This document shows, in pieces, positions 4,765-53,819 of a DNA stretch of 64,000 bases. The stretch lies in contig CBFHKH010000001.1 in the NCBI GenBank assembly GCA_965656375.1, forward strand, positions 281,319 through 345,318, given 5' to 3'. Position 1 is the first letter of the stretch; each line of letters starts with the position of its first letter. The notes under the pieces were generated by a model. It was not told where the DNA came from and ran no database searches. It saw only the letters and a list, made by a program, of their open reading frames with translations. Made by a program: the position numbers and the translations under genes. The stretch comes from Minisyncoccia bacterium. Lineage in GTDB: Bacteria; Patescibacteriota; Minisyncoccia; Phycocordibacterales; UBA9973.

Positions 4765-4829
4765 ATGATCAAGTATACTATGCTTTTATATGATTGCAAA
4801 AGAGTAGTATTTTCTGTAGTATACGAATT

Positions 4830-5720: not shown

Positions 5721-5764
5721 AAAGGCTTGTTATAAGAACAGGCCTTTTGAACTATAAATTTATA

Positions 5765-6475: not shown

Positions 6476-6540
6476 GATTTAGTTTTAAATTGGTTAAAAA
6501 TTTTGCATATTTGCTCTAAAAGCCCATGCAGCCCTTAGAG

Positions 6541-6577
6541 CAAATAACAAAATACAACCAAAGCAATTTGGTTGTAT
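6541..6577 (-). terminator. intrinsic terminator downstream of the DHS-like gene
   Basis: stem atacaacca/tggttgtat followed by T-run on the minus strand. Confidence 0.5.
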
Positions 6578-6604
6578 TTTGTCACATATTAATATGTCCG
6601 TCAA

Positions 6605-7624
6605 CTAGGAGATATATTTTGCAATCAACTCATTTGCTTCTTTTGGATTTGCTTTACACTCGAGAAGTGCTGTAAGCATGAGCGGCGCTACGATGGTAGC
6701 ATCTGATTCGATAACGAACATCGGGGTATCCTTTGTGAGTTTATCCCATGTGATCTTTTCATTTGGAGTCGCGCCTGAGTATGAACCATAGGAAGTGGTA
6801 GAGTCAGAAATCTGGCAGAAGTATGCCCATGGCTTTGCTTCCTGTTCCATATCGTACTTAAGCGATGGAACTACGCAGATCGGAAAATCTCCGGCAATAC
6901 CGCCACCTATCTGGAAGAATCCGATCCCCTCTTCTTTTGAAAGCTGTTGATATTGATCATAGAATGCGCCCATGTACTCAATGCCGCTTTTTGCAATAGA
7001 CGCACTCGCATCGCCATGCTTCACATGAGAAGCAAAGATATTTCCAAATGTTGAATCTTCATATCCTGGCACTACCATTGGAATATTATTCTCAGCTGCA
7101 GCAAGGAGCCAGCACTCCTCGGCCTTACCTTCATGTTTTTCCTTATCAAGAGTCTGAATTAAATCATAAAAGTATTCATGCCAGAATTTGCGAGTGCCAT
7201 CCTTGGTAGCTTGTTCCCATACTGGCACAATGTGTTTCTCAACAGCACGGAATGCTTCGTCCTCTGGGATACTTGTATCTGTAACACGACGCATACGATT
7301 CTCGAGGATCTTCGTATCATCTTCCTTTGTAAAATATCTGTAATCAGGGAAATCCTTGTACGAATCATGAGCGACAAGGCGGAAAAGCGATTCTTCTAGA
7401 TTCGCACCGGTAACAGACATACCATGGATAAGTCCTGCACGAATTGCGGGGGCAAGGACAATACCAAGCTGGGCTGATGACATAGCTCCTGCTACTGCCC
7501 AAAACATCTTGCCTCCTTTCTCTGCATGTCGCCAATATGCGATGAGTGCATCGCGTGTTGCGCGAGCATTAAAGTTCTTGTAATTCTTGAGCACAAATTC
7601 TAATGTAGGAAGATTGTTATTCAT
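6605..7624 (-). CDS. deoxyhypusine synthase-like protein (bacterial DHS-like homospermidine synthase type)
   Basis: length and motifs of the DHS family (GMSVTGANLEE, NAD-binding Gly-rich stretches, GGGIAGDFP). Confidence 0.7.
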   Translation of the reverse strand: MNNNLPTLEFVLKNYKNFNARATRDALIAYWRHAEKGGKMFWAVAGAMSSAQLGIVLAPAIRAGLIHGMSVTGANLEESLFRLVAHDSYKDFPDYRYFTKEDDTKILENRMRRVTDTSIPEDEAFRAVEKHIVPVWEQATKDGTRKFWHEYFYDLIQTLDKEKHEGKAEECWLLAAAENNIPMVVPGYEDSTFGNIFASHVKHGDASASIAKSGIEYMGAFYDQYQQLSKEEGIGFFQIGGGIAGDFPICVVPSLKYDMEQEAKPWAYFCQISDSTTSYGSYSGATPNEKITWDKLTKDTPMFVIESDATIVAPLMLTALLECKANPKEANELIAKYIS

Positions 7625-7659
7625 AGTTATAGTATATCACTTATAATATAGGCTTCACA

Positions 7660-7743
7660 AATTATATCCTGAAAAAAGTCCTCGGATCTCCTCGCACTAA
7701 ATTCTTAGAGGAGCGAGGCCAGACTATTTTTCAGGATATAATT
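7660..7743 (+). repeat. palindromic intergenic element, copy A (terminal inverted repeats tatatcctgaaaaa/tttttcaggatata; inner cctcgc/gcgagg)
   Basis: about 90% identical to the reverse complement of 13838-13913. Confidence 0.8.
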
Positions 7744-7753
7744 TATTTCGCTC

Positions 7754-9133
7754 TTACCAGCCAAAATTTTTCCCAACATCATCAGGAGTTTCTCTTTTAC
7801 GAGATACTACGATGTGTCCGTTTTCTGCGATCAATTTGAGTGGCGATGAAAGCATGCAGTGGTGAGCTGCGAGTGGATCTTGATACGCACCGGTGTCATA
7901 CACCACTATATACATTGGTTGGCCACTTGCGCTATCATAATCAGGTAAAGTCACTGTGCCATTGACTCCTGTGTAAATATCGTCAGAATCGCAACTCGAT
8001 CCAGCAAGCCAGACGTCATTGAGATCTGCATCATGTTTGTTGTTCGCAGGAGAAATCGCCCATTTTTGACCGATAGCCCATGTATCGAGAAGATCATTCA
8101 TGAAGCTTCCATCAATCACGTACCATTTCTTTGCTGGACTCTTTTTATTTTTAATTTCCTTTGTATCAATAATCTTGAACACTGTGATCTGGGCTGGTGC
8201 CACAATATAGCGCCCCCATTCACATACAAGATTCGGATGCGGAAGGCCCCGCTTTTCGGACTCCTGTTTAATAAGTTTAAATATTTTTTCCATGAGCTTG
8301 TCTACCGGATAGCTCTTGTTGCGAGTATATGGGATTGGCATTCCACCGCCGATGTCGATTGTATCGAGTGATGGATTCTTTTCTTTAATCTTGAAATAAA
8401 CATCAAGAGCATACTTTACCGGACCAAGGACATCAGAAAGCTTCTCAATTTGAGATCCAATATGGTAATGGAGAATTTTAAGGTTTTTAAATGACCCCAT
8501 GTCGATGATCTCTTTCGCAGAAAATCCAAATCGATCGATCGGCTTATTCCAGTGTGAACTTGCTTTGATTGGCATATCAAGGCGTATACCGACATCATAT
8601 TTTGAATATTGGAGGAACTTCAACTCATTTGGTCCTTCAATAAGTGGAAAAATCTTAACTCCTTTATGCTGAAGATCATCAATAAGTGATATATATTTGT
8701 CAGTCTTTGGACCAGAACAAAGAATCCGGATATTTGGATTGAAAGTCTCCTGCTCAAGCATTTTCTTAACAAGCCAAAGATCATTATATGAGGAAGTTTC
8801 AAGATGCGCACCTTCACCGACGATCGCCATCACCACTTCTTTATTTTGATTTACTTTCATCGGATAGTGGTAAAAGAATTTACCTTGATATCCAACTTTC
8901 TTTGAGAGATCTTTAGCAAGATCAAGAAAATCTTCCAGGCGTTCCTCGATAACAAACGGCATGAGTATTTCAAGCGATGTTCCAAATTTTTCCGCCATGT
9001 AGCGAACGTTATAAATATTGTGACCTTCTTTTATGATAAGGTCACCTTCCTTGTTGAAGTCAAAATATTGAGTGTTGAATTCCTTCGCACCTATCTTCCA
9101 AAGCTTCTTTGAAGCCACAGAACGTTTAGTCAT
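7754..9133 (-). CDS. PLP-dependent fold-III decarboxylase (arginine/ornithine/diaminopimelate decarboxylase family); arginine decarboxylase proposed from context
   Basis: HYHIGSQ, GGGMPIPY, CDSDD motifs characteristic of alanine-racemase-fold decarboxylases; adjacent agmatinase. Confidence 0.65.
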   Translation of the reverse strand: MTKRSVASKKLWKIGAKEFNTQYFDFNKEGDLIIKEGHNIYNVRYMAEKFGTSLEILMPFVIEERLEDFLDLAKDLSKKVGYQGKFFYHYPMKVNQNKEVVMAIVGEGAHLETSSYNDLWLVKKMLEQETFNPNIRILCSGPKTDKYISLIDDLQHKGVKIFPLIEGPNELKFLQYSKYDVGIRLDMPIKASSHWNKPIDRFGFSAKEIIDMGSFKNLKILHYHIGSQIEKLSDVLGPVKYALDVYFKIKEKNPSLDTIDIGGGMPIPYTRNKSYPVDKLMEKIFKLIKQESEKRGLPHPNLVCEWGRYIVAPAQITVFKIIDTKEIKNKKSPAKKWYVIDGSFMNDLLDTWAIGQKWAISPANNKHDADLNDVWLAGSSCDSDDIYTGVNGTVTLPDYDSASGQPMYIVVYDTGAYQDPLAAHHCMLSSPLKLIAENGHIVVSRKRETPDDVGKNFGW

Positions 9134-9282: not shown

Positions 9283-10569
9283 TTAACATATCTCTGCATA
9301 AATTGTATGACTATTGCCATGCAGACGACCTGAATTTACTTCGTGTGAATCTATGGAGAGGCATTCTCTGTGCCCGCCAATCCACTTTGAAACTCCATTC
9401 ACCGTTGCAATAAAGACCCGATCAATATACGCATAGGTATGTTGGTCCATTTCATTTACTAATTGCGGCGCTTCGTGTTCCGGTTGCAATATATATGAAC
9501 CACGACTACGCATATTTTGCCGCAATTTTTTACGAAAGTTTCCGTCATTCAAAGAACCAGATATATGTCCATAGCAACCGAAAGTACCTTGAATTGGTTT
9601 AGCACGAATTCTCTTTTCAGTACCGTTAATTGATAACAATGAATCTATACCTGCGATTTCTAAATACTTAGAAAACTCACTCAGATACATAAGGCTTGCT
9701 TCGTCTTTCACTTCAAACCCCATACCCATAAGCGGCAGATATCTTTTTGTATCATTAATTCTTCGTTCATCAGTTTCTTGCCAGGCTGGATTATCAACAT
9801 TAAATGTAATGCTGTATTCCTTTATGATGCGTCTGATGGCAGAATCACTTAACAAGGGATGTTCTACTACTGTCTCGGGGCGCTTCAGCTTTTCAATTGG
9901 GTCGGATGAACGAACATACAGGAGATAACCACACTTTCCGCCATTCGACGAAAGATGTTGCAGGAACTCATCAGGCCCAAAGAATGCATCGAAACCTGAA
10001 AGATGCAGAACTTCTTCGTCAGATATGCTATCTTCTGAGCCTTTGCCGAATTCTGCTGCTTTCATAGCAACATATTTTTCCTTGGTAACTGCAAGAAGTG
10101 CGATAGGAAGGCTGTGCTTCGTACGCAAATCCTGCATCATTAATTTTGTCTCCTTGCTATACAAGGTAGACTGATTATCCGTTTCGCACGCTTTGGAAAG
10201 TAATTGATACAGTGCCCAATTATTCTCCATTTCAAATATTCGGCGTTTTAAAATTGTTTGCACTTCTTCAATCTTCATTATGGCCAATTCATCAAGCAAC
10301 TCGCTTGGTAAACCACACATGTCAATCTGTACAATCCAATTTATCGGATTACCATTTTGGTAGCAGTACCTGTAATCAGTCGGCCATTCACGGTTCGCTT
10401 TCACGAGTGAACCAAAAGCCTTGTTACATTCATCGTATATCTTACAAAGCGCATCAGTAACTACCTGAGGATACTTTACTTGATAATCGTTGAATGAATA
10501 CGTTGGTGAAAGCGAGGACTGTATAATTCCTGTTGTCACGCTAGAGTTTAATGGATGTTTCATTTTCAA
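9283..10569 (-). CDS. hypothetical 428-aa soluble protein, function unknown
   Basis: long ORF with strong coding look; no motif I can assign with confidence. Confidence 0.6.
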   Translation of the reverse strand: MKMKHPLNSSVTTGIIQSSLSPTYSFNDYQVKYPQVVTDALCKIYDECNKAFGSLVKANREWPTDYRYCYQNGNPINWIVQIDMCGLPSELLDELAIMKIEEVQTILKRRIFEMENNWALYQLLSKACETDNQSTLYSKETKLMMQDLRTKHSLPIALLAVTKEKYVAMKAAEFGKGSEDSISDEEVLHLSGFDAFFGPDEFLQHLSSNGGKCGYLLYVRSSDPIEKLKRPETVVEHPLLSDSAIRRIIKEYSITFNVDNPAWQETDERRINDTKRYLPLMGMGFEVKDEASLMYLSEFSKYLEIAGIDSLLSINGTEKRIRAKPIQGTFGCYGHISGSLNDGNFRKKLRQNMRSRGSYILQPEHEAPQLVNEMDQHTYAYIDRVFIATVNGVSKWIGGHRECLSIDSHEVNSGRLHGNSHTIYAEIC

Positions 10570-20996: not shown

Positions 20997-22487
20997 CTAC
21001 AATGCGGTTACATGTATTTTTGAAATATCAGTCGGGAGGGATTTCTGCCATGGTGGGAAGAGCGTTGCACGCGCTTCGGCAATACCGGGATCAGTTTTAA
21101 AAAGTGATGGCAACATATCTTTTGAAACTCCTACTATTCGTGCTTTAAAATTCTCTATATCAGGGTGCCAAATTGCCGTTGCCTTCCCCGTTAAATTAAA
21201 TGCAACAGTATGCATATCTTTAGTAATGATCTGATTTTCATTCAAGAATGAGAATTTAAGTTTTGCTATTTCTGGTATATCAATTTCCTTTCGTTCAATA
21301 GTGCCGATGCTAGATAATTTATTTTTGATGAGAGCATCTTCTAAATCACTTTCTTTGAAAATTATTGCGGCAAGCGTCCCAGTGATACCGACGGTAGCTT
21401 CGGGGGTTGAAGATCTCACTGCCTCATCGACAGTATAAGTAAAGGTAAATGCATCAGGATAGAGAATATATCCTTTTGGTACCTCTGCATTTACTTTCTT
21501 TATTAGTCTACTTTTAAAAGTTGATTGTGCTGTTGCGCTTACATTTCCCTTCTCGGTTGCACCAAGGATATAGGCAAGTCCTTGTGCACCGCCCTTGATA
21601 GGCTGTACTGCTTTCGCATATATTTTCTTGAATTTAGTTGTACCTTTGTAGGCAGAGATTGTAAAATCAGTCGAAGTGCTATTGTAGGCATCTCCGGGTA
21701 GAAATGCAGTTATCCTAACATCTACAGTCCCCGGAATTATTTGAGTGCCAGAAGTTTTATATCCAGGAATTGTAACTTTAGTATCAGTGAGGTAGGTTTT
21801 GCCATTTGCATCTGCCAAATGAGAACGCGGAGCAATAGTAACAGGCGTCGTACTGAATTCATTATAGAGGGTTACTGTACCTGTTGCATTACGTTTGGCA
21901 TCTTCAGTTTCTGTTAAAACAATATTCTTAGCATCACTATCAGTGACAATCATTATTTCAAATGAGATATCGGTATCAGTATTTTTTGAGGCTATGAATT
22001 CTGTAGCGTCGAGAACAAGCTCTTCATGTTTCTCTTGTATGACAACAGTTGTTCTTTCAAAATACATTGCGCCATGATAAAGAACCGCTAGGAGTATTGA
22101 AAACATAAAAAGGAAAACTATAGATTTGCGGACACTTTTCTTGTTTCCTCTCATTCGTGGAGTTCCTGTAAGCCGCTTAACAGGTTCTTCCTTTCTTATT
22201 TCGATAGTATCTCGAGGTACTTTTGCTTGCCATCCAGATGTAAAGACTGCAGCTTTTTGTAATGATTCTCTGTCAGAAAATCCTTTCTCAGAAGTTTCAG
22301 TTGGGATCTGGACGACTTCGCGTGCAGGCATTTCTTTCTCTTGTGGTTTTATTTGGACAGGAGGTACTCCGCGTACTTTCTCTAACTCAATTCTGCTCGG
22401 TGTACCTGGAGCTTTAATTTCCGTATTTGAAGCTTTTACGTTTTTTCTGCTTGTAAGCTTCATATCCATCATTATTTTCTTTGACAT
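20997..22487 (-). CDS. hypothetical bitopic membrane protein (about 115-aa basic cytoplasmic N-terminus, one TM, about 360-aa external domain); possibly PilN/PilO-like partner of the adjacent ATPase
   Basis: topology only; directly downstream of and near-overlapping the actin-like ATPase gene. Confidence 0.45.
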   Translation of the reverse strand: MSKKIMMDMKLTSRKNVKASNTEIKAPGTPSRIELEKVRGVPPVQIKPQEKEMPAREVVQIPTETSEKGFSDRESLQKAAVFTSGWQAKVPRDTIEIRKEEPVKRLTGTPRMRGNKKSVRKSIVFLFMFSILLAVLYHGAMYFERTTVVIQEKHEELVLDATEFIASKNTDTDISFEIMIVTDSDAKNIVLTETEDAKRNATGTVTLYNEFSTTPVTIAPRSHLADANGKTYLTDTKVTIPGYKTSGTQIIPGTVDVRITAFLPGDAYNSTSTDFTISAYKGTTKFKKIYAKAVQPIKGGAQGLAYILGATEKGNVSATAQSTFKSRLIKKVNAEVPKGYILYPDAFTFTYTVDEAVRSSTPEATVGITGTLAAIIFKESDLEDALIKNKLSSIGTIERKEIDIPEIAKLKFSFLNENQIITKDMHTVAFNLTGKATAIWHPDIENFKARIVGVSKDMLPSLFKTDPGIAEARATLFPPWQKSLPTDISKIHVTAL

Positions 22488-22488
22488 A

Positions 22489-23673
22489 TTATTTATATTC
22501 TTTCTTTCTCATTATTGCTATTGCTTCTATCATCAAGAATGGATCACAGAGTCCATCTTTGACTCTACACATATTCAAAAATTCTGGACCTTCAAGAGTT
22601 ACCACTGTAGAGGTATGATCGGCAACCATTGACTGAATATATTCTTCATTGCGTACAACGTTTGCAAACCAATCACGAATATCGTTATCAGCAGTGAGGA
22701 ATATTGTCCCTGGTAGTGTGAGCGTATGGGGAAGCGTGCCAATACACTGGCGAAACGCTTCACTCCATGAATTTTCAATTGATTTAAAAAGTGGGCCGAG
22801 TTTATCTTTAAATTTCTCTGATATCACACCTTTTGTATGGAGCGCAAATAATTCTTTTGCATCACGGAGCTCTATCTCAAGTTTGCTACACATATATTTA
22901 AAAAATGTCTTCTTTCCAAAAGGAAATGAGAGCGTCGCCCGTAGTATCCCTTTTGACACAATGCCAACATCTGTGATTTCACCATTAATATCAAGCAAGA
23001 GATAAGAATCTGGAGTCACATACCTGTCACGAACAGCGATAAATGATGCAACCATAAATGAAGAGAATGTGACTGGTTTTGAGTGATATGTTTTTGAAAG
23101 TGTTTTTTTAATTCTTTCAAGACATATCTTTGGAGAAAGCGAAATAATCATATTCATTTCAATAGCTTTAGTCTTTTTTCCGAATGGATCAAGCACTGGA
23201 TAGCCATTGAGTGATACCCCCATAATATGGTGCTCTATTACTTCAGGTGCGCTCTCTACTCCACCATATTTTTTTTGGTACATTTCGGTGAGTGATACAA
23301 TTTCTTTTTGAAAGAGTTCATCTCCGAGGCGCCTTGTAAATACGAATGGAACTTCTTTAGACATCTTGATCGTTCGAGTTTCTGATATATACCATGGAGA
23401 TGCAACTACACAGACAATCTCATCAGGTGCACCTAGCTTTGCTTTATATAGTTCTGATGCGGTTGTATTAAGTGCGGTAAGCATATCACTCAAGAATATA
23501 TTGAAGTCGAGCACATTTTGAAATGTAATCTGAGTGCGAGCAGACTTTATAATTTCAGGAACTCCGGTACCATCATCTGGTATACGAGCGAGAGCTCCAC
23601 CAACAGATCCTGAACCAATATCGAAAATCGCCACGAGGCGCTCTTTGTGTGATGATGAAGAAAACAATCCCAT
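22489..23673 (-). CDS. actin-like (ASKHA) ATPase, PilM/FtsA-like
   Basis: phosphate-1 AIFDIGSGSVGGAL and phosphate-2 LLLDINGEITDVGIV (DIGGGTTD-type) motifs; a bona fide FtsA is encoded separately at 41873. Confidence 0.5.
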   Translation of the reverse strand: MGLFSSSSHKERLVAIFDIGSGSVGGALARIPDDGTGVPEIIKSARTQITFQNVLDFNIFLSDMLTALNTTASELYKAKLGAPDEIVCVVASPWYISETRTIKMSKEVPFVFTRRLGDELFQKEIVSLTEMYQKKYGGVESAPEVIEHHIMGVSLNGYPVLDPFGKKTKAIEMNMIISLSPKICLERIKKTLSKTYHSKPVTFSSFMVASFIAVRDRYVTPDSYLLLDINGEITDVGIVSKGILRATLSFPFGKKTFFKYMCSKLEIELRDAKELFALHTKGVISEKFKDKLGPLFKSIENSWSEAFRQCIGTLPHTLTLPGTIFLTADNDIRDWFANVVRNEEYIQSMVADHTSTVVTLEGPEFLNMCRVKDGLCDPFLMIEAIAIMRKKEYK

Positions 23674-28790: not shown

Positions 28791-30086
28791 TTACATCGGC
28801 AAATTGGAAGGTGGCTTTGCAATCTTTGACTCAATTCGCTTGAAGCTTGGAGTCTCTGAGACCATGCCTGGGAAGTGGAAAATTGTTGCAAGTTCTCGAG
28901 AAGACATTACGAATATTTGTGGAGAGCCAGAAGGAAAGAAAGCAGCAAGGACCTTTGGATATTTAAATGAATATTGGATAGGTGGGTGGAAAAATGTACG
29001 CATTCGAAAGAAATCGAGTGTGCGCTTTTTATATTTAGTAAGAGCAAGCCCTGTAGGATCAGACCATGGTGCATCGAATTGTGTAGAGTTGATACGATTA
29101 AGTTCGTTAACATCAGGCTGTGCATATTGACGCCAGATAAGACGTGAATTACGTCTTAAATTCATAAATTGTTCCTCAGTGCAGAGATTTTTATTCGAGA
29201 GTGTCACCACTCGAATGCCGCAATCGAAATGGATCAAACTCGCATTTTCTACCATTACTTTTACTTTATTCTTGAGTGGTTCTGGAGTACGCATATCCAT
29301 ACCCATAGTATCTCCATTATCATTTCTTTGGATACGAGTATACGGTAAGAGCATATTTTCAATAAATTCATATGTAGCGGCATAGAAATCAATGTGTTTG
29401 CCGGTGTGGTGACTATGATATGTCTTTATGTTCTGACGTATGACAATTTGCACCCACATTTGCTGACCACGAGGCAGTGACCCTAAAAATTCTATAACTG
29501 GTGTAATCGGATCGATCTTGTATTCTTCTTTGGTGCCGCTGTCCATTTCTTCCATGTCTCGATAGGTACGGATCGGCAAGAAATCTTCTTTCATCTTGGT
29601 GTATTCGCACCCCCACATATCCCACTCTCCATTTTTTCGATATTGAGGAACATGGAGTGTATAATCTTCGGCTTCAACGACTTTCGCTTGCGGATACTGC
29701 GCGTAGATCTGTGTTTCTACGAGCTCCCGCATACGAGACGGAGTACGTATAAAGAAGTGAACTTTGCCATCAATGGATGCCATCTCAAGTGAGAACCAGA
29801 ACCATGGTGCACCTTGGATGTATTGCTCCCAAAAACCTTTTATACTTTTTTGATAGAACGCATTTGAGAATATTAACTCCATGGCTGCCGGAGATTTAAT
29901 GACATCGCGTGGAACATGAATCTCGAGAAGCACCCACTTGATACCCATGATGAAGCGCTCCTGGCGATAGTGATGCCAGAGTCTAAGCGCGATCATGGTC
30001 AGTGGAATAGGCATCAGATACCCGATCGTGACGAGAAGAATTTGCACAAGATTAAAACTATGAGTAGCAAAGAAATCTGAAAGCAT
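28791..30086 (-). CDS. hypothetical 431-aa membrane-anchored protein
   Basis: N-terminal TM segments, large soluble domain, no assignable motif. Confidence 0.5.
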   Translation of the reverse strand: MLSDFFATHSFNLVQILLVTIGYLMPIPLTMIALRLWHHYRQERFIMGIKWVLLEIHVPRDVIKSPAAMELIFSNAFYQKSIKGFWEQYIQGAPWFWFSLEMASIDGKVHFFIRTPSRMRELVETQIYAQYPQAKVVEAEDYTLHVPQYRKNGEWDMWGCEYTKMKEDFLPIRTYRDMEEMDSGTKEEYKIDPITPVIEFLGSLPRGQQMWVQIVIRQNIKTYHSHHTGKHIDFYAATYEFIENMLLPYTRIQRNDNGDTMGMDMRTPEPLKNKVKVMVENASLIHFDCGIRVVTLSNKNLCTEEQFMNLRRNSRLIWRQYAQPDVNELNRINSTQFDAPWSDPTGLALTKYKKRTLDFFRMRTFFHPPIQYSFKYPKVLAAFFPSGSPQIFVMSSRELATIFHFPGMVSETPSFKRIESKIAKPPSNLPM

Positions 30087-46277: not shown

Positions 46278-46349
46278 GGCCCTATCGTCTAACGGTTAGG
46301 ACATCGGCTTTTCAAGCCGGTAATCCGGGTTCGATTCCCGGTAGGGTCA
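46278..46349 (+). tRNA. tRNA-Glu (anticodon UUC)
   Basis: cloverleaf ggcccta...tagggtc acceptor, anticodon loop ttTTCaa, T-loop ttcgatt. Confidence 0.85.
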
Positions 46350-46361
46350 CAGGTGCTGTAG

Positions 46362-46448
46362 GGAAAGGTGGCTGAGTGGTTGAAGGCACCGCTCTCGAAA
46401 AGCGGCAGGGGTGAAAGCTCCTCGAGGGTTCAAATCCCTCCCATTCCG
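46362..46448 (+). tRNA. tRNA-Ser (anticodon CGA), long variable arm
   Basis: D-arm gctgagtggttgaaggc, anticodon loop ctCGAaa, extended variable arm, T-loop ttcaaat; one acceptor mismatch. Confidence 0.8.
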
Positions 46449-46458
46449 CAGGAAAAAC

Positions 46459-46531
46459 GCGCGGTTAGCTCAGTTGGTAGAGCGTCCCCTTGACGTGGGG
46501 AAGGCCACAGGTTCGAATCCTGTATCGCGCA
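46459..46531 (+). tRNA. tRNA-Val (anticodon GAC)
   Basis: acceptor gcgcggt/atcgcgc, D-arm agctcagttggtagagc, anticodon loop ttGACgt, T-loop ttcgaat. Confidence 0.85.
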
Positions 46532-46737
46532 CAAATATATCTCCTTTTGCCCATATTTAGCAAGCTATTCTGGCTTGACTTTTAAGGTTATTTATGCTAT
46601 TATATTCAAGTAATTCGTTCTTTGAAAATTTAAAGCTTAGGTCTTGTTTATGAGGACAATTCTCGCCTTCCCTTCATTATTTGAAAGGTTAGCGTTGTCT
46701 TCATAAACAAAAATTCTAAACTTTTAAAATAAACACT

Positions 46738-47238
46738 ATGTCATCACACAACACTTCACACGCAACAGAAACCGAAGCTTCAGATAAAAGCATACGGGCA
46801 ACTGTACCAGAACCAAAATTGTCAATTGTATTTGGAATAATTATCGGTATCATACTACTAATTATCACATTTGTGGTTGTCAAGAACCTGTATAAAAACA
46901 GGCCACAGGAATACTTCCTAACAAAAATCGGGTACGGTGGATATCTGGAAATTGAGGTTAGACCAAACCACACTCCATACAAGATATTCCTAACACCGAG
47001 CCGGGATTTCCATCAGATCTGGTCAGAAGACGAACTTGAAGTAATCACTCTAAGCAAAAGCAAGAGTGAAACAAGAAGAATACGTGGTAGATCCATAGTT
47101 AATGGATCATCATTCTCTTCCCATGCTGACTTCAATGCAATCTTGCTAAAGAACGAAACAAATCATTCAATCACCTTCAAAATCAGCAAGTGTCGTTCTC
47201 TCGAGGACAGCATCCCTAATTTTGGAATTAAAAACTAA
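46738..47238 (+). CDS. hypothetical single-TM membrane protein
   Basis: ORF with one TM (IVFGIIIGIILLIITFVVV). Confidence 0.45.
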   Translation: MSSHNTSHATETEASDKSIRATVPEPKLSIVFGIIIGIILLIITFVVVKNLYKNRPQEYFLTKIGYGGYLEIEVRPNHTPYKIFLTPSRDFHQIWSEDELEVITLSKSKSETRRIRGRSIVNGSSFSSHADFNAILLKNETNHSITFKISKCRSLEDSIPNFGIKN

Positions 47239-48289
47239 TCACATGCAAACATTTTTTTTAAATTTCGAAATTTTTATTTGTATAGCTGTAATCTTAGCAA
47301 CAGGTAAGATAGCATTCCCAACCTACACCTATACGTACAAATTTTCTTTGATCGTATGGTGTATTGGAATATGCATTTTTGCCTTTCAGCTTATCAGCAT
47401 CTCTTCAAACATTGATGTTGAACAAACCATTGATGCTGTACAGATTGTATCGTGCGTTGTGTCCTTAGCAATATGTAGTTTTACTGCGTATTTAAACGGA
47501 AGACAACTCACATACAAAACTATGACTATAGTTGTCTCCCGGGTAACCAACAAAGCAGTAGGAGTTATCGGTCCAGGAATAGGTTCTATAGATCCGTGGT
47601 TTGAAATCACCGCAAAACCTATTAGCCTGAAAGCTGAAGAAGTTCGCATTAAAGAAACACCATGGATGCAAACAGGTACGCGAGGCATCTTAGCTCGAAT
47701 ACTTGAAATTAGCATTATGCTTCAATGTAAAGGTAACAGTGATTCTAAATCTAAAGGTAACAGTGATCCTAAGAGTATAATTTCTCTCTATAACATTGTA
47801 GGTGGAGTAGAAACTGTTATAGAGCGCATTAAAAACTTCGCTGATGAATTCTTTTTGGATGAAGTTGGTGTTGTGGAAGCTCAAAAATTAGATACTGGTA
47901 GAAAGAAATTCAGAGAAGCTATGCGGATAAAATTAGAAAAAGAAATAAATCATTTTTGCTGTGAGAATGGATATCCCTATATAGTTAAGCAGATATTGAT
48001 AGGTGATACCGAACTTTCTAAACAGTACTACGATGCATTGGCCGAACTTGCTTTGACCATCCTAAGGGAAAATGCATTGAATAAGAGCGCAGAGATGACT
48101 GGTGAGAGGGTTAGAGCTCTTGGAAAAGTTTTATTGCCTACTGGCAGTGAATCACAGCAGTTTGAAGCTGCTCAGATAACACTGAAAGAAATCAAGAAAA
48201 CAATTGAGGATAAGAAATTTGGAGTTGATGCTGATATGGCAAAACTTATCAAATTGATTGTTCCAGTTCTTTTCAAGTCTCGCAAGTAA
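47222..48289 (+). CDS. hypothetical polytopic membrane protein with in-frame 24-nt tandem duplication (KGNSDSKS/KGNSDPKS)
   Basis: several N-terminal TM helices; duplication at 47729-47776. Confidence 0.45.
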   Translation: MELKTNHMQTFFLNFEIFICIAVILATGKIAFPTYTYTYKFSLIVWCIGICIFAFQLISISSNIDVEQTIDAVQIVSCVVSLAICSFTAYLNGRQLTYKTMTIVVSRVTNKAVGVIGPGIGSIDPWFEITAKPISLKAEEVRIKETPWMQTGTRGILARILEISIMLQCKGNSDSKSKGNSDPKSIISLYNIVGGVETVIERIKNFADEFFLDEVGVVEAQKLDTGRKKFREAMRIKLEKEINHFCCENGYPYIVKQILIGDTELSKQYYDALAELALTILRENALNKSAEMTGERVRALGKVLLPTGSESQQFEAAQITLKEIKKTIEDKKFGVDADMAKLIKLIVPVLFKSRK

Positions 48290-48302: not shown

Positions 48303-48334
48303 TAAGTCCCAGCACACGCTGGGACTTTTTTATT
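48303..48334. terminator. bidirectional hairpin agtcccagc-acac-gctgggact + T6 between convergent genes
   Basis: perfect 9-bp GC-rich stem. Confidence 0.7.
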
Positions 48335-50213
48335 TACGAGCTTCGAGTGCTACCCAGTAATCATAATTTCCAGTCCAGGTATCTTTTTGATAGTAACGTT
48401 CTTCGAGAATAACAGGAGACTGTATATCATCAACTGTCTCAACTCCTGCTTCATTGGCAATTCTGATAAGCGCGTTTTTTATAGCAATGTTTCTTGCCGC
48501 AGAGTATCCAGTACTCACACCAGAACCAATTGCTCTATAATAATTTGCATCAGATGTATATGTTGATTTGAGTGGATCTTTCTTACCACTTTCATTGCTA
48601 ACTTCTGGTATTCCCCCACTTACACTCCCTATTGGCTTGAGTGTACAATCTGCTGTTCTACCCCCTTTTATAGGCGCTCGTGCATCCATCCAAACATAAT
48701 AATTCTTCGTTTCTTTATCATATGCAGTAAGCATTCCATACTGTGCAGGTAAGTTCTGAGCAGTTTTTTCTTCAAGTAGATTATTGTCAGAAAGGAACGC
48801 TTTTCGCATTTTTGTTTTTATTTCCGTGAGAGCTCCAAACTCAGTAGTGCTTTTACCATAATCTTCCTTCCTCCAGCAAAGTGCGTTTGGTTCGTATTTT
48901 TGAAGAAACGGACTTTTTGTAAAATCTTTTATAGTGTTTTTAAGTACAGTCTGGCTGAGGTTAATCTCATCACTTGTAGCAGCAATCTTTGAGAACAAGG
49001 TAGATTCTGGCATCTCTCGCGCTTCTTTGCCTTTTACAACTGTAAGCTTAGATGCTGAACAATCCGATACCGTACCTGTACTTTTTGGTGCTCTCGCATC
49101 AAGCCACACATAGTATTTACTCGTTTTATTATTATATAAAATTATAGTCGTATAGAGTATCGGGTAATTTGCTTTGATCACCCCTGTTGTATCAGCGATC
49201 TTTGCATATTCTGCCTTCGCGCGTGTTCGTGCTTTTTCAAGAGCATCATATTCTGTTTCTGCCTCGCCCGGAACAGGCATCACCCAGCAGAGATTACTTG
49301 GTTCGTACGTTGCAAAGGGGCTCGTTGTATAGAACGTAAGCGGCAAATCTGGAGTCTCTCCGCTACTACTAATATTCTGCGATGAAAACACTGCTGCTTG
49401 GGGAATGACTGGAGCCTCTTTTAAAACCTTAAGAGTATTACAATTTTTCTCCATAGTCCCTTGTCCAATCGGAGCTCTGACATCAAGCCACGCATAATAC
49501 GTCCTTGTAGTCACGTCATACAACACCTTCGATCCAAACACTACAGGATAAGCTTTTTTACTCACATCTTTGTCGGAGATGTTATTAATTCGAAGGTATT
49601 CAGATCGAGCGAACTTCTTTACTTGATCAAGTGCATCATATTCTGTATTTGATTTCATTGGATATGCTTCTCTCCAACAAAGCGCATCTTTTTGATATGT
49701 TGGGAATGGGCTTGTAGTGAATGTTGCTTGTGGGAGCTTGGGAGTACCTGTAATAGTGCTAATGTCTTTGACGTCTGTCGTATCTCCAAAGCCAAGACCA
49801 GTGCCAGTATTATCTGCAATATCTCTATCCTTAACATCCACACCAGTAACTACAAAGTCGCCGTTATTATTAACTTTTATCTTATTCTCTCCGATAGTAG
49901 AGAGAATGATTTTCATAATACCGAATACAGCGGTCATAATAAAAAGACCAAAGACTCCCCATATCATAATTGACTTACTTTTCTTATGGACTTCTTCATT
50001 ACCCGGCGAAAGCAGGTAACGGGTAAGTCCATAAAGAAAATACGCCATAGCACACGCAAACATGAAAATAATGATAGGGTTAATAATAACCCTATCAATA
50101 CTTTTCATAAGAGTTGTAAGACTCGCTTCTGCAACTGGAATGATTTGAAAATCAACCATGGATGTTTGATTAGCAGATGACGCCTGGACCAGGGATACAA
50201 GGGATTGCATCAC
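48330..50213 (-). CDS. large surface protein: N-terminal VirB2/TrbC-like pilin module fused to a triplicated about 120-aa Cys/Trp-containing ectodomain plus distinct C-terminal domain
   Basis: N-terminal ...FLYGLTRYLLSPGNEEVHKKSKSIMIWGVFGLFIMTAVFGI like the four upstream paralogs; three repeats with ...LCW...TEYDAL...YY(A/V)W(L/M)D(V/A)RAP; true start may be the internal MVDFQ. Confidence 0.6.
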   Translation of the reverse strand: MMQSLVSLVQASSANQTSMVDFQIIPVAEASLTTLMKSIDRVIINPIIIFMFACAMAYFLYGLTRYLLSPGNEEVHKKSKSIMIWGVFGLFIMTAVFGIMKIILSTIGENKIKVNNNGDFVVTGVDVKDRDIADNTGTGLGFGDTTDVKDISTITGTPKLPQATFTTSPFPTYQKDALCWREAYPMKSNTEYDALDQVKKFARSEYLRINNISDKDVSKKAYPVVFGSKVLYDVTTRTYYAWLDVRAPIGQGTMEKNCNTLKVLKEAPVIPQAAVFSSQNISSSGETPDLPLTFYTTSPFATYEPSNLCWVMPVPGEAETEYDALEKARTRAKAEYAKIADTTGVIKANYPILYTTIILYNNKTSKYYVWLDARAPKSTGTVSDCSASKLTVVKGKEAREMPESTLFSKIAATSDEINLSQTVLKNTIKDFTKSPFLQKYEPNALCWRKEDYGKSTTEFGALTEIKTKMRKAFLSDNNLLEEKTAQNLPAQYGMLTAYDKETKNYYVWMDARAPIKGGRTADCTLKPIGSVSGGIPEVSNESGKKDPLKSTYTSDANYYRAIGSGVSTGYSAARNIAIKNALIRIANEAGVETVDDIQSPVILEERYYQKDTWTGNYDYWVALEARK

Positions 50214-50526
50214 TGTGTAGCTGTTCAGAACCTACGCCAAATGTGTTTGTAACAAGGCGGATGATTCCCCAGAATGCAACGATAACAAAGAGACCGATAA
50301 GACCCTGGATGATTTTCGCACGTGACTTTTTCTTTGCTTCTTCGTCTGATGAAAGAGTATACTGGATGACTCCCCAGATAAAGTACACAACAGCAAGCGT
50401 AATGAGCACAGGAATAAGAGTAGCCAAGATCTTGTTTATCACTGTGATGACAGAGAACGCATCAGCAGCAAAAGCCAGGAATGGCACGGAACCAAGAACA
50501 ACACCGAATGAAATGATTTTCTTCAT
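50170..50526 (-). CDS. small T4SS-pilin-like (VirB2/TrbC-like) membrane protein
   Basis: signal peptide, hydrophobic helix, SSDEEAKKKSRAK loop, second helix IIQGLIGLFVIVAFWGII. Confidence 0.55.
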   Translation of the reverse strand: MKKIISFGVVLGSVPFLAFAADAFSVITVINKILATLIPVLITLAVVYFIWGVIQYTLSSDEEAKKKSRAKIIQGLIGLFVIVAFWGIIRLVTNTFGVGSEQLHSDAIPCIPGPGVIC

Positions 50527-50648
50527 ATATTAAACGTAATAATAAACTTAATAATAACTGTATCTATTCCCGCCGACCGCAGGCAATGAGATGGGACCTC
50601 TATAGTACATATCTAGTATATCATACCTGATAGCAAGATTTGCAAGGG

Positions 50649-51029
50649 TTATTGGGAAAGCTGTGGAATAAGAGTTTTGATCCCGAACGTATTTGAAAGA
50701 ACTCCAACAAGTCCCCACATGCTCACCATGACAAAAAGCGTAATGAGTCCCCAGATCATATATGTCTTCCCTTTCTTGCGCTTTTCTTCATTGTCAGGAT
50801 TCAAGAAAAATTGAATGATGCCCCAGATGAATCCTGCTGTCGCAAGTGTAAAGAGGAATGGTATGATGAACTGGATGATGGTGCAGCTTCCCCATTTGAA
50901 GATATGCCCGAGGCTTGTAAACGGTGGTGATACCTGGCTACAATTTGCAGTAGTTCTATCAGCTGCCGCAGTTACAAGCGGAACTGATGCATACGCTAAA
51001 ACTCCGAGTGTTCTAAATGTATTTTTCAT
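50649..51029 (-). CDS. small T4SS-pilin-like (VirB2/TrbC-like) membrane protein
   Basis: signal peptide MKNTFRTLGVLAYASVPLVTAAA; helix...FFLNPDNEEKRKKGKTYMIWGLITLFVMVSMWG. Confidence 0.55.
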   Translation of the reverse strand: MKNTFRTLGVLAYASVPLVTAAADRTTANCSQVSPPFTSLGHIFKWGSCTIIQFIIPFLFTLATAGFIWGIIQFFLNPDNEEKRKKGKTYMIWGLITLFVMVSMWGLVGVLSNTFGIKTLIPQLSQ

Positions 51030-51543
51030 CTTTAATGCGTTTGGTTGTGCTTCTAATTTCATCGACCGTTCCCTTAATAGCGTTTGCTATGACATACGAG
51101 CCAAGCAGGAGCGCAGCACCAACAAGTGTGTAGAGAAGTGCTTTCTTTGCTTTGGTAAGCTTCTCACTATTACCTGCTGCTGTCACAAAAAGGAATCCAG
51201 AATATATGATGGCAAGAGCTACGATAGGTATGCCTACAGTTAATACAAAATTAAGAATAGTCTCTATAAAAGAAGGAATATCTTCTACGCCTGCGATCGG
51301 ATTCTTAATACCAGTTTCAATTTTGATTCCATCCCCATTCTTTTTAGTTTGGGTATTATCAATATTTGCTGAATTTTGTTGTGTGTTATCGATATCAGCA
51401 GTAGGACATTTAGGTTCTCCTGGTTTACCACAAGCATTTACCATTGTTCCAGGCATGAAAAACACAAGAGCGATAACGAAGATGAGACTATACTGTACCA
51501 ATAAACTTCCTATTGTGTGTTTAGTTTGATTTATTTTTTTCAT
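51013..51543 (-). CDS. T4SS-pilin-like membrane protein with longer Asn/Gln/Thr-rich N-terminal region
   Basis: ...VGIPIVALAIIYSGFLFVTAAGNSEKLTKAKKALLYTLVGAALLLGSYVIA. Confidence 0.5.
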   Translation of the reverse strand: MKKINQTKHTIGSLLVQYSLIFVIALVFFMPGTMVNACGKPGEPKCPTADIDNTQQNSANIDNTQTKKNGDGIKIETGIKNPIAGVEDIPSFIETILNFVLTVGIPIVALAIIYSGFLFVTAAGNSEKLTKAKKALLYTLVGAALLLGSYVIANAIKGTVDEIRSTTKRIKDEKYI

Positions 51544-51560
51544 AATTTACAAATTAATAA

Positions 51561-51968
51561 TTAACGTATTAAAAAAGTTTCCCCTTTGAAACCAAGCGTT
51601 ACAAAGATTGTCTTGATAATAAGCCATGCTGCAAGAGCAATTATATACCCTATAATAACATTCTTTATAATTTTCTTTGCTTTTGTAACTTTTTCGGAAC
51701 TACCGCCTGAGAATAACAATTGCGCTCCAGCAATACAAAGCGCAAGTGCTGCAAGTGGTGCAGCAATCTTAAAGAGAAGAAAATCAATAACATTATTAAT
51801 GAGCTCGATAAAGGAATTAAAATTACATTGCTCTGTAATCGTTCGTCTTCCATCTGACTCAGTTATAATCTTCCCACAATCAGGAACCAACCCTGCTGCA
51901 TGTACAATAAGATATGGAGCAAAGATAATCACGAATGCAATGATGAATCCAAATAGTTTTCTTTTCAT
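51561..51968 (-). CDS. small T4SS-pilin-like (VirB2/TrbC-like) membrane protein
   Basis: signal peptide; IAAPLAALALCIAGAQLLFSGGSSEKVTKAKKIIKNVIIGYIIALAAWLII. Confidence 0.55.
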   Translation of the reverse strand: MKRKLFGFIIAFVIIFAPYLIVHAAGLVPDCGKIITESDGRRTITEQCNFNSFIELINNVIDFLLFKIAAPLAALALCIAGAQLLFSGGSSEKVTKAKKIIKNVIIGYIIALAAWLIIKTIFVTLGFKGETFLIR

Positions 51969-51972
51969 AAAA

Positions 51973-53277
51973 TTATTTCTTAGTTATAAATTCTAACTGT
52001 GCTTGTGCCTTGTTGATCGCATCATCAGTCGAAAGCTTGCTTGAGAGGACATTCTGAATCAATTCAGAGAAGATCTGGTCGCTTCCTTTCGTATCAGGAT
52101 CAAGCCACGTGCGTGATATAACTGCAGAGTTAAAGAAAGTAAATAGATACGGATCTACCGGTCTCTCTGCAAGAAGTGTGCGCGATGCAGGCGGAAGTGA
52201 TACAGCACTCGCAAAATTCTTTGCAGTGTCTCCAGTTGTGAGCAACCCAGCAACACTAAATGCAGTGGTTAGATTTGTAGATTTCTTGTTTACCGCAAGC
52301 GCATAAATAGTACCGTACGTACGCTTAGTATTGGTTCCGCGAGTTTGGAGCATTTGTGTAACATCAAAGCTTAAGTTTGGATTAACAGATTGAATTTTGA
52401 AAAGCTCGCTTGCTCGGCCAAGATAAAATACAAGCTTTCCTCCTGTAAATAGATCAATTGAGTTTGGCAATGCTCTATTCCATGAATACGCCGGTGCGGT
52501 CGGACTTGAAAACTCTGTGAAAAAGTTAATGACTGATTCTATTGGCGATACTGGAAGAGCAGAAGTATTCTCATTAAGAGCAGGAATATATCCTGTCGCT
52601 GTCGTCTTTATAATAGGGTTACCATTTTGCAAAAGGAGCGTTGCGAGAATATCTTTCGCATGGGTAATATTATCAAATCTGCCGAGTCCAATTATACTCT
52701 GGAGGATCGTTCCATCATCTTTTTTTATAGTTAGATCAGGCACGAGTGGAAAAAGTTCATCCCAATATTCAGGTAGCTTTGCGATACCCGCATTTGAGAT
52801 GAGATCTTTGTTGTAGTAGAGCACCATTGGATCAGTTACCATCGGAAAGCCGATGATTCCATCACTTGCAAGGTATACATTTGCACCATCGATAAATGCA
52901 TCCTGGAATGATTTTTGCGGATAGTTTGTATATGGAATTTTATAAATAAAGTCGCGATCTTTCTGAACCATATCCGGAGAGAGGAAAAAGAGATCAGGCC
53001 CAGTACCCGCAGCAAATGCTTCAATAAGAGATTGCTGGTATGTTGACTCATTCTTCACCACATAGCTAATAGTCAGATCTCTATTAGCATCTCGCGTCTC
53101 GTCAAATACTTTATAAATGTCAGGGCTATTAAATGTTCCCCAAATCACGATCTTACCAGTAGGTTCAGTCGTATTTTTTGTTGCACCTCCTATCTTCAAA
53201 AGTCCCGAGAATATCAAAACGGCAAATACGAAAAATGCCATGAAGATTGCAACTAAGATTGTTTGGAAGTTATTCAT
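51973..53277 (-). CDS. membrane-anchored extracellular solute-binding protein (SBP family 1, sugar-type) without adjacent ABC permease/ATPase
   Basis: N-terminal TM anchor; KIVIWGTF..., GPDLFF, LYYNKDL...LPEYWDEL, C-terminal DDAINKAQAQLE typical of SBP_bac_1. Confidence 0.55.
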   Translation of the reverse strand: MNNFQTILVAIFMAFFVFAVLIFSGLLKIGGATKNTTEPTGKIVIWGTFNSPDIYKVFDETRDANRDLTISYVVKNESTYQQSLIEAFAAGTGPDLFFLSPDMVQKDRDFIYKIPYTNYPQKSFQDAFIDGANVYLASDGIIGFPMVTDPMVLYYNKDLISNAGIAKLPEYWDELFPLVPDLTIKKDDGTILQSIIGLGRFDNITHAKDILATLLLQNGNPIIKTTATGYIPALNENTSALPVSPIESVINFFTEFSSPTAPAYSWNRALPNSIDLFTGGKLVFYLGRASELFKIQSVNPNLSFDVTQMLQTRGTNTKRTYGTIYALAVNKKSTNLTTAFSVAGLLTTGDTAKNFASAVSLPPASRTLLAERPVDPYLFTFFNSAVISRTWLDPDTKGSDQIFSELIQNVLSSKLSTDDAINKAQAQLEFITKK

Positions 53278-53798
53278 CTCTTGAAAAGTATACCATAATG
53301 ATGGTCTGGAACAGATATCGTTTTAGCTTTTTTGAATCCTCGTTTTTCAAAAAGTTCTAACGCTCTCTTTTCTGTCACTACAAAATGAGGGGCTGGTCCC
53401 ATCCCTCCGAATGAATCAGCCCAGTCTATGCAAAGAATTTCTCCATCAGTTTTTAGAATGCGCTTGGCTTCATCAATGAGACCAAGCTTGTCATCTACTT
53501 GAAATAAAACATTCGACATAATCACTCTATCAACACTAGCATCTTTAATTTTTGTGCCGTGTACTTTTTCGATATCACCCCAAATACAATCTACATTTAG
53601 GATGCCGAGGTTGTGTATCTCCGATTCAAGTTTTTTAACCAAATCTTTTTGGACTTCTACTGCATACACGTGACCAGTTCTACCGACTTTCTTGCTTACA
53701 GCTTTTACATACGCACCAGTCCCAGATCCAAGATCAGCAACACACATACCTTCTTCTATAGAAAGATGTGCAACATTTTGTTCTGGGTTTGAAAACAT
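53274..53798 (-). CDS. class I SAM-dependent methyltransferase (small, 174 aa)
   Basis: motif I VADLGSGTGAY, motif II/III (VDRVIMSNVL). Confidence 0.7.
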   Translation of the reverse strand: MFSNPEQNVAHLSIEEGMCVADLGSGTGAYVKAVSKKVGRTGHVYAVEVQKDLVKKLESEIHNLGILNVDCIWGDIEKVHGTKIKDASVDRVIMSNVLFQVDDKLGLIDEAKRILKTDGEILCIDWADSFGGMGPAPHFVVTEKRALELFEKRGFKKAKTISVPDHHYGILFKR

Positions 53799-53819
53799 GA
53801 TTTTATTATATCATTTTTA

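Follow-up and report, generated by a model that had tools for sequence, protein, structure and literature searches.

A gyrA-linked tandem array of five T4SS_pilin-type genes in a Minisyncoccia bacterium, ending in a pilin fused to a repeated ectodomain

The stretch of DNA analysed here, 64 kb of contig CBFHKH010000001.1 from a Minisyncoccia bacterium (the window hereafter), carries a tandem array of genes for small proteins that resemble the pilins of type IV secretion systems (T4SS). From position 51968 down to 48330 of the minus strand, five pilin-type open reading frames (ORFs) follow one another with gaps of -17 to 122 nucleotides (nt). They are named p1 to p5 in transcription order, and the last one joins a pilin module to a large ectodomain. 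The array is made up of the following genes.

51561-51968, minus strand: pilin p1, 135 amino acids (aa), with a signal peptide, a conserved VPDC...C-x-F cysteine pair in the outer N-terminal segment and a hairpin with loop SGGSSEKVTKAKK.
51013-51543, minus strand: pilin p2, 176 aa, with a signal peptide and a hairpin with loop AAGNSEKLTKAKK.
50649-51029, minus strand: pilin p3, 126 aa, with a signal peptide, an N-terminal Cys pair and a hairpin with FIWG/MIWG and loop NPDNEEKRKKGK.
50170-50526, minus strand: pilin p4, 118 aa, with a signal peptide ending AFA-ADAF and a hairpin with loop SSDEEAKKKSRAK.
49845-50159, minus strand: pilin module of p5, residues 1-105 of a 609-aa protein, with a hairpin, loop SPGNEEVHKKSKS and a short beta-hairpin tail.

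The four small ORFs reported in the initial annotation were all found on the minus strand at these positions, with the shared layout of signal peptide, helix, Lys/Glu-rich loop and helix. By inspection the N-termini of p1-p4 are signal-peptide-like, with a K/R-rich start, a hydrophobic segment and an A-x-A-type end, and in p1-p5 two long hydrophobic helices surround a short Lys/Glu-rich loop of net charge +1 to +4 (+2 to +4 in p1-p4). The outer N-terminal segment of p2 is variable, of low complexity and contains two Cys; p3 ends in a conserved KTLIPQLSQ, and the C-terminus of p4 forms an invariant IPCIPGPGVxC cysteine loop (Cys-x7-Cys) in which C110 and C118 are invariant in the alignment. An alternative 137-aa reading of p3 from 51062 is unlikely, the orthologues beginning at the signal peptide. 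The large ORF that had been described as a 627-aa protein with a pilin-like opening and a continuation of about 450 aa exists and does open with the hairpin in the AlphaFold2 model; its start and the size of its extension have to be revised. The p5 gene most probably begins with the ATG at 50159 (609 aa) instead of the GTG at 50213, since an NCBI protein record (P0001) matches the 609-aa product residue for residue, since the orthologues all open with M-x-F-x-I-I-P-x-A-E-A-S a few bases past the p4 stop, and since the 44-nt overlap with p4 that the GTG would give then vanishes. The extension past the pilin module is real and comprises about 500 aa, internally repeated.

Membership of the array proteins in a pilin family was assessed with the Pfam profile T4SS_pilin (PF18895; gathering cut-off 26.6 bits). 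Scores of 45.8 bits for p1, 28.9 for p2, 35.0 for p3 and 35.2 for p4 (E values of 6e-12 to 1e-6) all exceed the cut-off. Thus, p1-p4 belong to the T4SS_pilin family abundant in Patescibacteria, as had been proposed, and NCBI calls some p4 relatives 'pilin'. The membership of p5 is supported by orthology, because its short positional orthologue in Parcubacteria bacterium RAAC4_OD1_1 passes with 37.6 bits and because a precomputed PF18895 match is on record for many proteins of its fusion family. A further profile, NF045849 of NCBIfam (Mbov_0395 family pilin-like conjugal transfer protein, from mycoplasma; cut-off 40), was approached most closely by p4 with 39.0 bits, the others scoring 15-31. 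Assignment to the type IV pilin class was rejected: the five N-termini have, by inspection, no G-F/M-x-x-x-E prepilin leader, and no Pfam match to type IV pili was found.

Structure prediction also bore out the helix-loop-helix hairpin. AlphaFold2 models gave helices 23-58 and 62-96 for p4, with a predicted local distance difference test score (pLDDT) of 85-94, and helices 14-50 and 55-88 for the N-terminus of p5. The Cys pairs of p1-p4 sit solely in the predicted outer termini. Since domain additions and Cys pairs occur only at the termini and never in the loop, and since the loop is basic, both termini are predicted to lie outside and the loop inside. In solved conjugative pili both pilin termini face outward, which fits this topology.

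Related loci were gathered in two sets, four syntenic ones through exact-protein look-ups and 55 species-level ones from GTDB genomes, the latter annotated with hidden Markov models (HMMs) built from the window genes. The array ORFs are kept in 55 species, with five members in 33 of the 55 loci and a range of 3 to 7. The best matches of each window pilin in other genomes come from the corresponding position of their arrays. Over the four genomes compared, identity to these orthologues is 50-86% for p1-p4 (63-86% for p4), 35-64% for p5 and 83-92% for GyrA; p3 shares 67-75% with its positional orthologues and the pilin module of p5 (about 105 aa) 63-80%. Identity between positions within the window is 18-50%, and the copies differ in fixed features, namely Cys motifs, tails and signal peptide. 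Strict positional orthologues combined with such divergence between copies indicate that the array was not recently amplified and that the groups are ancient. The initial description of the genes as paralogs therefore holds in a deep sense, with the addition that each has strict positional orthologues elsewhere. Position-specific groups of this kind are characteristic of specialised subunits in a heteromeric set and argue against antigenic variation. The most conserved member is p4, with more than 500 homologues at 65-88% identity, and because it also has its own conserved promoter-like element, p4 is probably the major subunit.

The gene order around the array is conserved as well. Two genes precede p1 in the window.

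51973-53277, minus strand: solute-binding protein (SBP), 434 aa, membrane-anchored, matching SBP_bac_1 and SBP_bac_8 in Pfam (58.6 and 58.2 bits).
53274-53798, minus strand: class I S-adenosylmethionine (SAM) methyltransferase, 174 aa, a syntenic neighbour whose stop runs 4 nt into the SBP start.

The SBP gives weak MalE-like matches in the PDB and shares 54-75% identity with its positional orthologues. It adjoins the first pilin gene on the upstream side in all 49 related loci with enough flank, typically with a gap of 1-4 nt, and is a candidate sixth component of the operon. No ATP-binding cassette (ABC) permease or ATPase gene was found within the 64-kb window, which leaves the SBP without local partners. 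Among the related loci with enough flank, GyrA is present in 44 of 44 and the methyltransferase in 42 of 44; the order GyrA, SAM methyltransferase, SBP, pilin array and p5-type last pilin recurs in every locus with enough flank. The metagenome-assembled genomes concerned are labelled Paceibacteria/Paceibacterota, Nomura-, Vogel- and Campbellbacteria and Parcubacteria, and a further group 'uncultured Candidatus Saccharibacteria'. From gene order and orthology, the array is best explained as a vertically inherited core-genome operon of Paceibacteria, lying downstream of gyrA-methyltransferase-SBP.

The p5 protein continues beyond its pilin module with a linker, three repeats and a cap.

49725-49844, minus strand: p5 linker, residues 106-145, unconserved and predicted to be disordered.
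49425-49724, minus strand: ectodomain repeat 1, residues 146-245, beta-alpha-beta-beta, with C161 and C240; self-built repeat HMM 168 bits, pLDDT >90.
49044-49337, minus strand: ectodomain repeat 2, residues 275-372, with C291 and C367; repeat HMM and AlphaFold2.
48630-48929, minus strand: ectodomain repeat 3, residues 411-510, with C428 and C505; the family-wide conserved last repeat.
48333-48593, minus strand: C-terminal cap, residues 523-609, about 90 aa without Cys, beta-alpha-beta-beta like the repeats.

In the linker, pLDDT is below 50 for residues 106-135 and identity is 25-50% over short stretches only. Each repeat is about 100 aa long with two conserved Cys and the motif SPF..Y...LCW...TEY.AL...YP...YY.W.DARAP...C; in repeat 3, C428, W429 and C505 are conserved to at least 90%. 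The fusion family comprises 77 proteins of 340-892 aa, none of them named, with 1-5 repeats each and the cap in all members. Proteins across this whole range of repeat numbers have an orthologous last repeat and cap, and the proximal repeats have their closest kin within their own protein or a close lineage. This suggests that the stalk grows and shrinks by duplication and loss of proximal repeats. More distant Paceibacteria have at the end of the array a plain pilin of 80-130 aa that finishes right after the short beta-hairpin tail (33 of 55 loci), so the ectodomain appears to be a derived addition of one sub-clade. Cap-type domains alone were found on the last pilin in 3 of the 55 loci.

When all of 1.84 billion representative proteins were scanned with the ectodomain, just 43 relatives were retrieved. 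No recurrent Pfam family was found among 28 ectodomains, and the fold search in the PDB gave no match at E <= 1e-3. The weak fold matches below that level were small beta-alpha-beta-beta proteins (FTT_1539c, 4qvr; HP1454, 4kzs; dodecins) at 6-17% identity, whose own function is unknown. An LPP20-like assignment of the cap and repeats, suggested by sequence pattern, was dropped for want of Pfam support in the 28 members. As judged by these searches, the p5 repeat is an orphan domain. In one relative of p5 a Kazal protease-inhibitor domain stands between pilin module and repeat, some proteins of about 133 aa consist of a signal peptide and the cap domain alone, and one p1-type pilin bears a cap-like domain at its N-terminus. 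In view of its conserved Cys pairs, of the Kazal domain that occupies this place in one relative and of caps that follow signal peptides, the ectodomain must be extracytoplasmic.

In other Paceibacteria lineages, large N-terminal additions with weak Ig/fn3-like signals are carried by p1, p2 or p3; p1 reaches 569 aa, and one p3 is a tandem double pilin.

L031:7415-9124, L037:6230-7738, L058:6260-7567, L061:9347-10216 and L058:7992-8708, with proteins P0058 and P0218: array members with outer-domain additions or a double pilin.

Outer additions at either terminus of different array members would suit display on a polymer.

Several putative transcription signals were recognised in and around the array.

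50615-50645, minus strand: promoter-like element for p4-p5, with TTGCAA (50640-50645), a 19-nt spacer including TG, and TATACT.
50564-50588, minus strand: conserved small hairpin in the predicted 5' untranslated region (UTR) of p4, CATTGCCTGCGGTCGGCGGGAATAG, its centre GCGGTCGG being invariant in the alignment.
48304-48327, no strand assigned: GC-rich hairpin of 10 bp between the convergent ends of p5 and a 355-aa gene.

The p3-p4 gap is the sole sizeable intergenic gap in the array. The element in it, whose extended -10 reads TGaTATACT (50615-50623), could be aligned in 16 related loci and is nearly invariant there; an extended -10-like motif was present in the equivalent gap of 35 of the 55 loci, a figure given without a chance control. 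A generic promoter scan stayed at background level and did not list the element, which was seen only through cross-species alignment. It suggests that p4 and p5 may be co-transcribed from a separate conserved promoter. The hairpin downstream of it has 7 pairs in RNAalifold, 4 of them with compensatory changes, and an energy near zero; a search of the locus in Rfam found nothing relevant and no family for this hairpin. At the other end of the array, T-runs border the hairpin at 48304-48327 on the plus strand, and on the minus strand its T-rich tail is weaker; it is a candidate bidirectional terminator. Finally, the motif TGATATAAT (53796-53813, minus strand) ends 7 nt before the methyltransferase ATG, which suggests a leaderless or nearly leaderless transcript of methyltransferase-SBP-p1-p3. 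Motifs resembling it occur in 26 of 48 related loci, again without a chance control.

Beyond the p5 end lie two poorly conserved membrane proteins on the plus strand (46738-47238 and 47222-48289) and a tRNA-Glu/Ser/Val cluster (46278-46532). In relatives, the slot 46278-48289 holds serine recombinases, a replication-protein gene or restriction-modification genes and thus looks like a variable or integration region. The two convergent genes (46738-48289) were rejected as components of the system, being poorly conserved and replaced in relatives. The window is ordinary chromosome, with FtsA/FtsZ, MreB, GyrA, DnaK/DnaJ/GrpE, RpoA, several aminoacyl-tRNA synthetases, BipA and PriA. It also contains a polyamine-type cluster (4794-9133) with an arginase (4794-5720), a 236-aa protein, a deoxyhypusine-synthase-like protein (6605-7624) and an Orn/Arg decarboxylase (7754-9133). 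Four large ORFs of 394-496 aa, all on the minus strand (9283-10569, 20997-22487, 22489-23673 and 28791-30086), had no Pfam match at E <= 0.01.

Tandem pilin arrays of this type have been published, and the array by itself is therefore not new. Wang et al. (2023) described a predicted pilin series inside the T4SS cluster of Southlakia epibionticum that is essential (PMC10633639). In a search of 3,035 genomes with PF18895 and PF04956, Quinonero-Coronel et al. (2025) counted 441 Patescibacteria arrays that comprise 2-11 pilin genes each, arranged in tandem or one gene apart, with a mean within-array identity of about 25%; no adhesins were detected (PMC12102498). The window array, with its five genes, falls under that definition (at least two PF18895/PF04956 genes in tandem). 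It shares with the arrays of Patescibacteria and S. epibionticum the Pfam family, the tandem of divergent small hairpins with signal peptides and the absence of a relaxase context. The size series are alike too, the six PF18895 genes SEML1_0014-0019 of S. epibionticum encoding 132, 185, 103, 126, 127 and 138 aa (PMC10633639) and p1-p4 of the window 135, 176, 126 and 118 aa. However, the S. epibionticum array stands beside T4SS genes, whereas the window array is apart from them and locked to gyrA-methyltransferase-SBP across Paceibacteria; and its last member has a large repeated ectodomain, unlike those of published PF18895 arrays. gyrA, the binding protein and pilin fusions are not mentioned in the survey (PMC12102498), and the fusion of a pilin to an ectodomain of orphan repeats, the five-pilin positional orthology and the class-wide gyrA-methyltransferase-SBP linkage are undescribed in the literature searched. 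The Paceibacteria 'pilin' clusters of PMC9763046 were set aside as prior art; they are type IV pili, another family.

Other known systems resemble the array in part. The canonical VirB2/TrbC/TraA pilins (PF04956; mating-pair formation classes MPF_T and MPF_F, in diderm hosts) have in common with the window pilins a signal peptide, two hydrophobic helices and a short basic loop. Unlike them, the window array has no adjacent VirB1, VirB3 or VirB4, belongs to a monoderm host, comprises five different subunits instead of one and gives no evidence for cyclisation or a pilus. VirB5-type tip proteins and PilB/PilC of Streptococcus sanguinis are low-copy subunits that bear a binding module, the latter as a pilin with a globular module. 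The likeness to p5 is a functional analogy only, with no relation in sequence or fold, and p5 differs from PilB/PilC by the absence of a type IV prepilin leader and by its orphan beta-alpha-beta-beta additions. The Trw copies of Bartonella arose by recent duplication within lineages and are regarded as interchangeable variants; the window copies, on the contrary, are ancient and have their own orthologues. Several pilin genes in a row and a link to host contact are shared with Trw, in which trwL (VirB2) and trwJ (VirB5) are amplified in tandem (cited in PMC12102498).

Taken jointly, the data are best explained by an operon of five non-redundant T4SS_pilin members that would form a T4SS-built pilus or stalk, with p5 as its host-contact element, a reading to which a probability of about 0.55 is given. 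Inserted in the membrane, the array proteins would have both termini on the outer side and the Lys-rich loop on the inner one. A T4SS machine encoded elsewhere (VirB4/TrsD/VirB3/VirB6, as in RAAC4_OD1_1) would extract them and assemble them into a short pilus or stalk crossing the wall, with p4 as the bulk subunit and p1-p3 and p5 as low-copy specialised subunits. Through its pilin module p5 would join this structure, its ectodomain projecting outward as a stalk of variable length, built from duplicated proximal repeats and carrying the conserved last repeat and cap at its end. There it may act as a contact or adhesion element towards the host cell, and a role of the fusion as an adhesin is conceivable at this point.

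The place of the T4SS genes bears on this reading. Of 3,035 Patescibacteria assemblies, 2,417 contain VirB4. Arrays lie near virB4 in 1,135 of 1,948 assemblies (PMC12102498); such proximity is frequent and not required, and the window array is not near such a gene. In RAAC4, VirB6, VirB3, TrsD and VirB4 (CDS, for coding sequence, 531-535) and one pilin (CDS 537) stand far from the gyrA-linked array (PMC12102498 Table S3). The same table gives for RAAC4 one PF18895 pilin, beside VirB4, and a PrgF-profile match at CDS 287, whereas all five gyrA-linked array proteins of RAAC4_OD1_1 (L033, 9127-11102) score above the PF18895 cut-off here. Hence, gyrA-linked Paceibacteria arrays may be under-counted in that survey.

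Several observations weigh against a T4SS-built pilus carrying p5. The window ORFs include no VirB4 and no VirD4, as already noted in the initial annotation, and a VirB4-like ATPase is absent within 10 kb in all 55 related loci, so a T4SS elsewhere in the source genome is assumed. In the flanks of these loci, ORFs of at least 480 aa were screened; ten were scanned with Pfam and eight had matches, and VirB4 candidates among the large ORFs were rejected as IF-2, PheT, histidine kinases, ClpB, recombinases and PriA. A pilus made of PF18895 proteins has never been seen in any Patescibacterium (PMC12857230). Moreover, p5 itself scores below the PF18895 cut-off (17.7 bits, E 0.004) and, by hydropathy and inspection, has the two helices and the loop without a signal peptide. 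An ectodomain of about 500 residues on a pilin may not fit the packing in a filament body, and neither Pfam nor PDB fold searches detected kinship of this ectodomain to known adhesins. The link to conjugative pilins proposed at the outset is likewise borne out in one part only. The hairpin topology is predicted as expected, but against PF04956 (TrbC/VirB2; cut-off 27.9 bits) p1 reaches 24.7 bits (E 2.7e-5) and p2 21.2 (E 3.3e-4), with the hairpin covered, and p3-p5 have no match. Aligned by hhalign, 105 array pilins and 7 plasmid VirB2/TrbC proteins have their hairpins in register at a probability of 14.9% and an E value of 0.0018. Sequence and fold searches of the PDB returned generic helical hairpins or composition artefacts and no conjugative pilin specifically; the matches of the 105-pilin profile were transmembrane segments of G-protein-coupled receptors (GPCR) only and were dismissed as such artefacts. 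Homology of the array proteins with canonical VirB2/TrbC is thus plausible, if marginal.

In the main rival explanation, the hairpins stay in the membrane as a platform or as a channel or stalk of a secretion machine, and p5 is an anchored surface protein with no filament. It would agree with the general lack of pili in monoderm T4SSs (PMC12102498) and with the fact that no filament has been demonstrated (PMC12857230). The large ectodomain, the flexible linker and the missing signal peptide of p5 are also what an anchored surface protein would have, and standalone secreted cap proteins do exist. Nevertheless, five distinct conserved subunits, one of them highly conserved and with its own promoter, exceed what an anchor needs; the family is related, even if weakly, to TrbC/VirB2, and extra domains at either terminus of different members suit display on a polymer. 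A purely membrane-bound role is therefore considered rather unlikely. The constant presence of the SBP, 1-4 nt from the first pilin gene in 49 of 49 loci, together with the lack of an ABC permease or ATPase in the 64-kb window, raises another reading, namely a single uptake device in which the SBP captures a host small molecule and the pilins act as conduit or docking site in place of a classical ABC permease. In a review, uptake from the host has been put forward as a speculative function of the patescibacterial pilus (PMC12857230). Yet the adjacency may be frozen synteny, gyrA and the methyltransferase being equally conserved neighbours; in S. epibionticum the listed neighbours of the array are T4SS genes and an Hsp20 gene, with no gene for a binding protein; the ABC partners of the SBP may be encoded in another part of the genome, and coupling of an SBP to pilins is without precedent, all of which makes such a device improbable.

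Two further explanations fare worse still. Tandem arrangement and the low identity between copies (18-50%) could recall recently amplified variants that serve to vary antigens or host range, a role proposed for the Trw pilins of Bartonella and suggested for Patescibacteria (PMC12102498). This is already disfavoured to the point of being very improbable, as each position has its own conserved orthologue group (50-86% for p1-p4), five members are kept in 33 of the 55 loci, and the fixed differences in Cys motifs, tails and signal peptide indicate a heteromeric machine and not interchangeable variants. In the same way, it is hardly credible that the array proteins are unrelated small membrane proteins, holin-like or immunity proteins for instance, that match by transmembrane composition. 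The fold is admittedly too simple to discriminate, the pilin profile does give spurious matches to GPCR helices in the PDB and one relative has a weak holin match. However, four independent PF18895 matches lie above the cut-off with loop and helix boundaries in register, the PF18895 family adjoins VirB4 in other Patescibacteria and is essential there, and the surrounding genes are those of a housekeeping chromosome rather than of a phage.

Building on the T4SS-built pilus or stalk with p5 as its contact element, a broader reading can be put forward tentatively, and with some doubt. The pilins of Paceibacteria could make up a core-genome host-contact organelle, kept apart from the secretion ATPase cluster, whose subunits serve as modular display scaffolds. 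Outer domains, whether orphan repeats, Ig/fn3-like or Kazal domains, would be grafted, in different lineages, on p1-p3 at the N-terminus or on p5 at the C-terminus; the SBP would aid uptake of host molecules, and the repeat number of p5 would tune its reach.

The presence of a pilus in these monoderm bacteria was called an 'intriguing possibility' in a 2025 review (PMC12857230). Should none of the functional readings hold, the locus would still represent a known array type cleanly and within clear limits. Only one species is genetically tractable, and there the pilin array is essential. The pilin-ectodomain fusion offers a handle on whether ultra-small monoderm Patescibacteria build a conjugative-type pilus and on what such a pilus touches. 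The invariant SBP linkage suggests a testable tie to nutrient uptake. As for the p5 ectodomain, it is predicted to be soluble, is well predicted and clade-specific, and could be used for expression, for raising antibodies and as bait for ligands in the host envelope. Locating it on cells would tell if the pilin module enters a filament.

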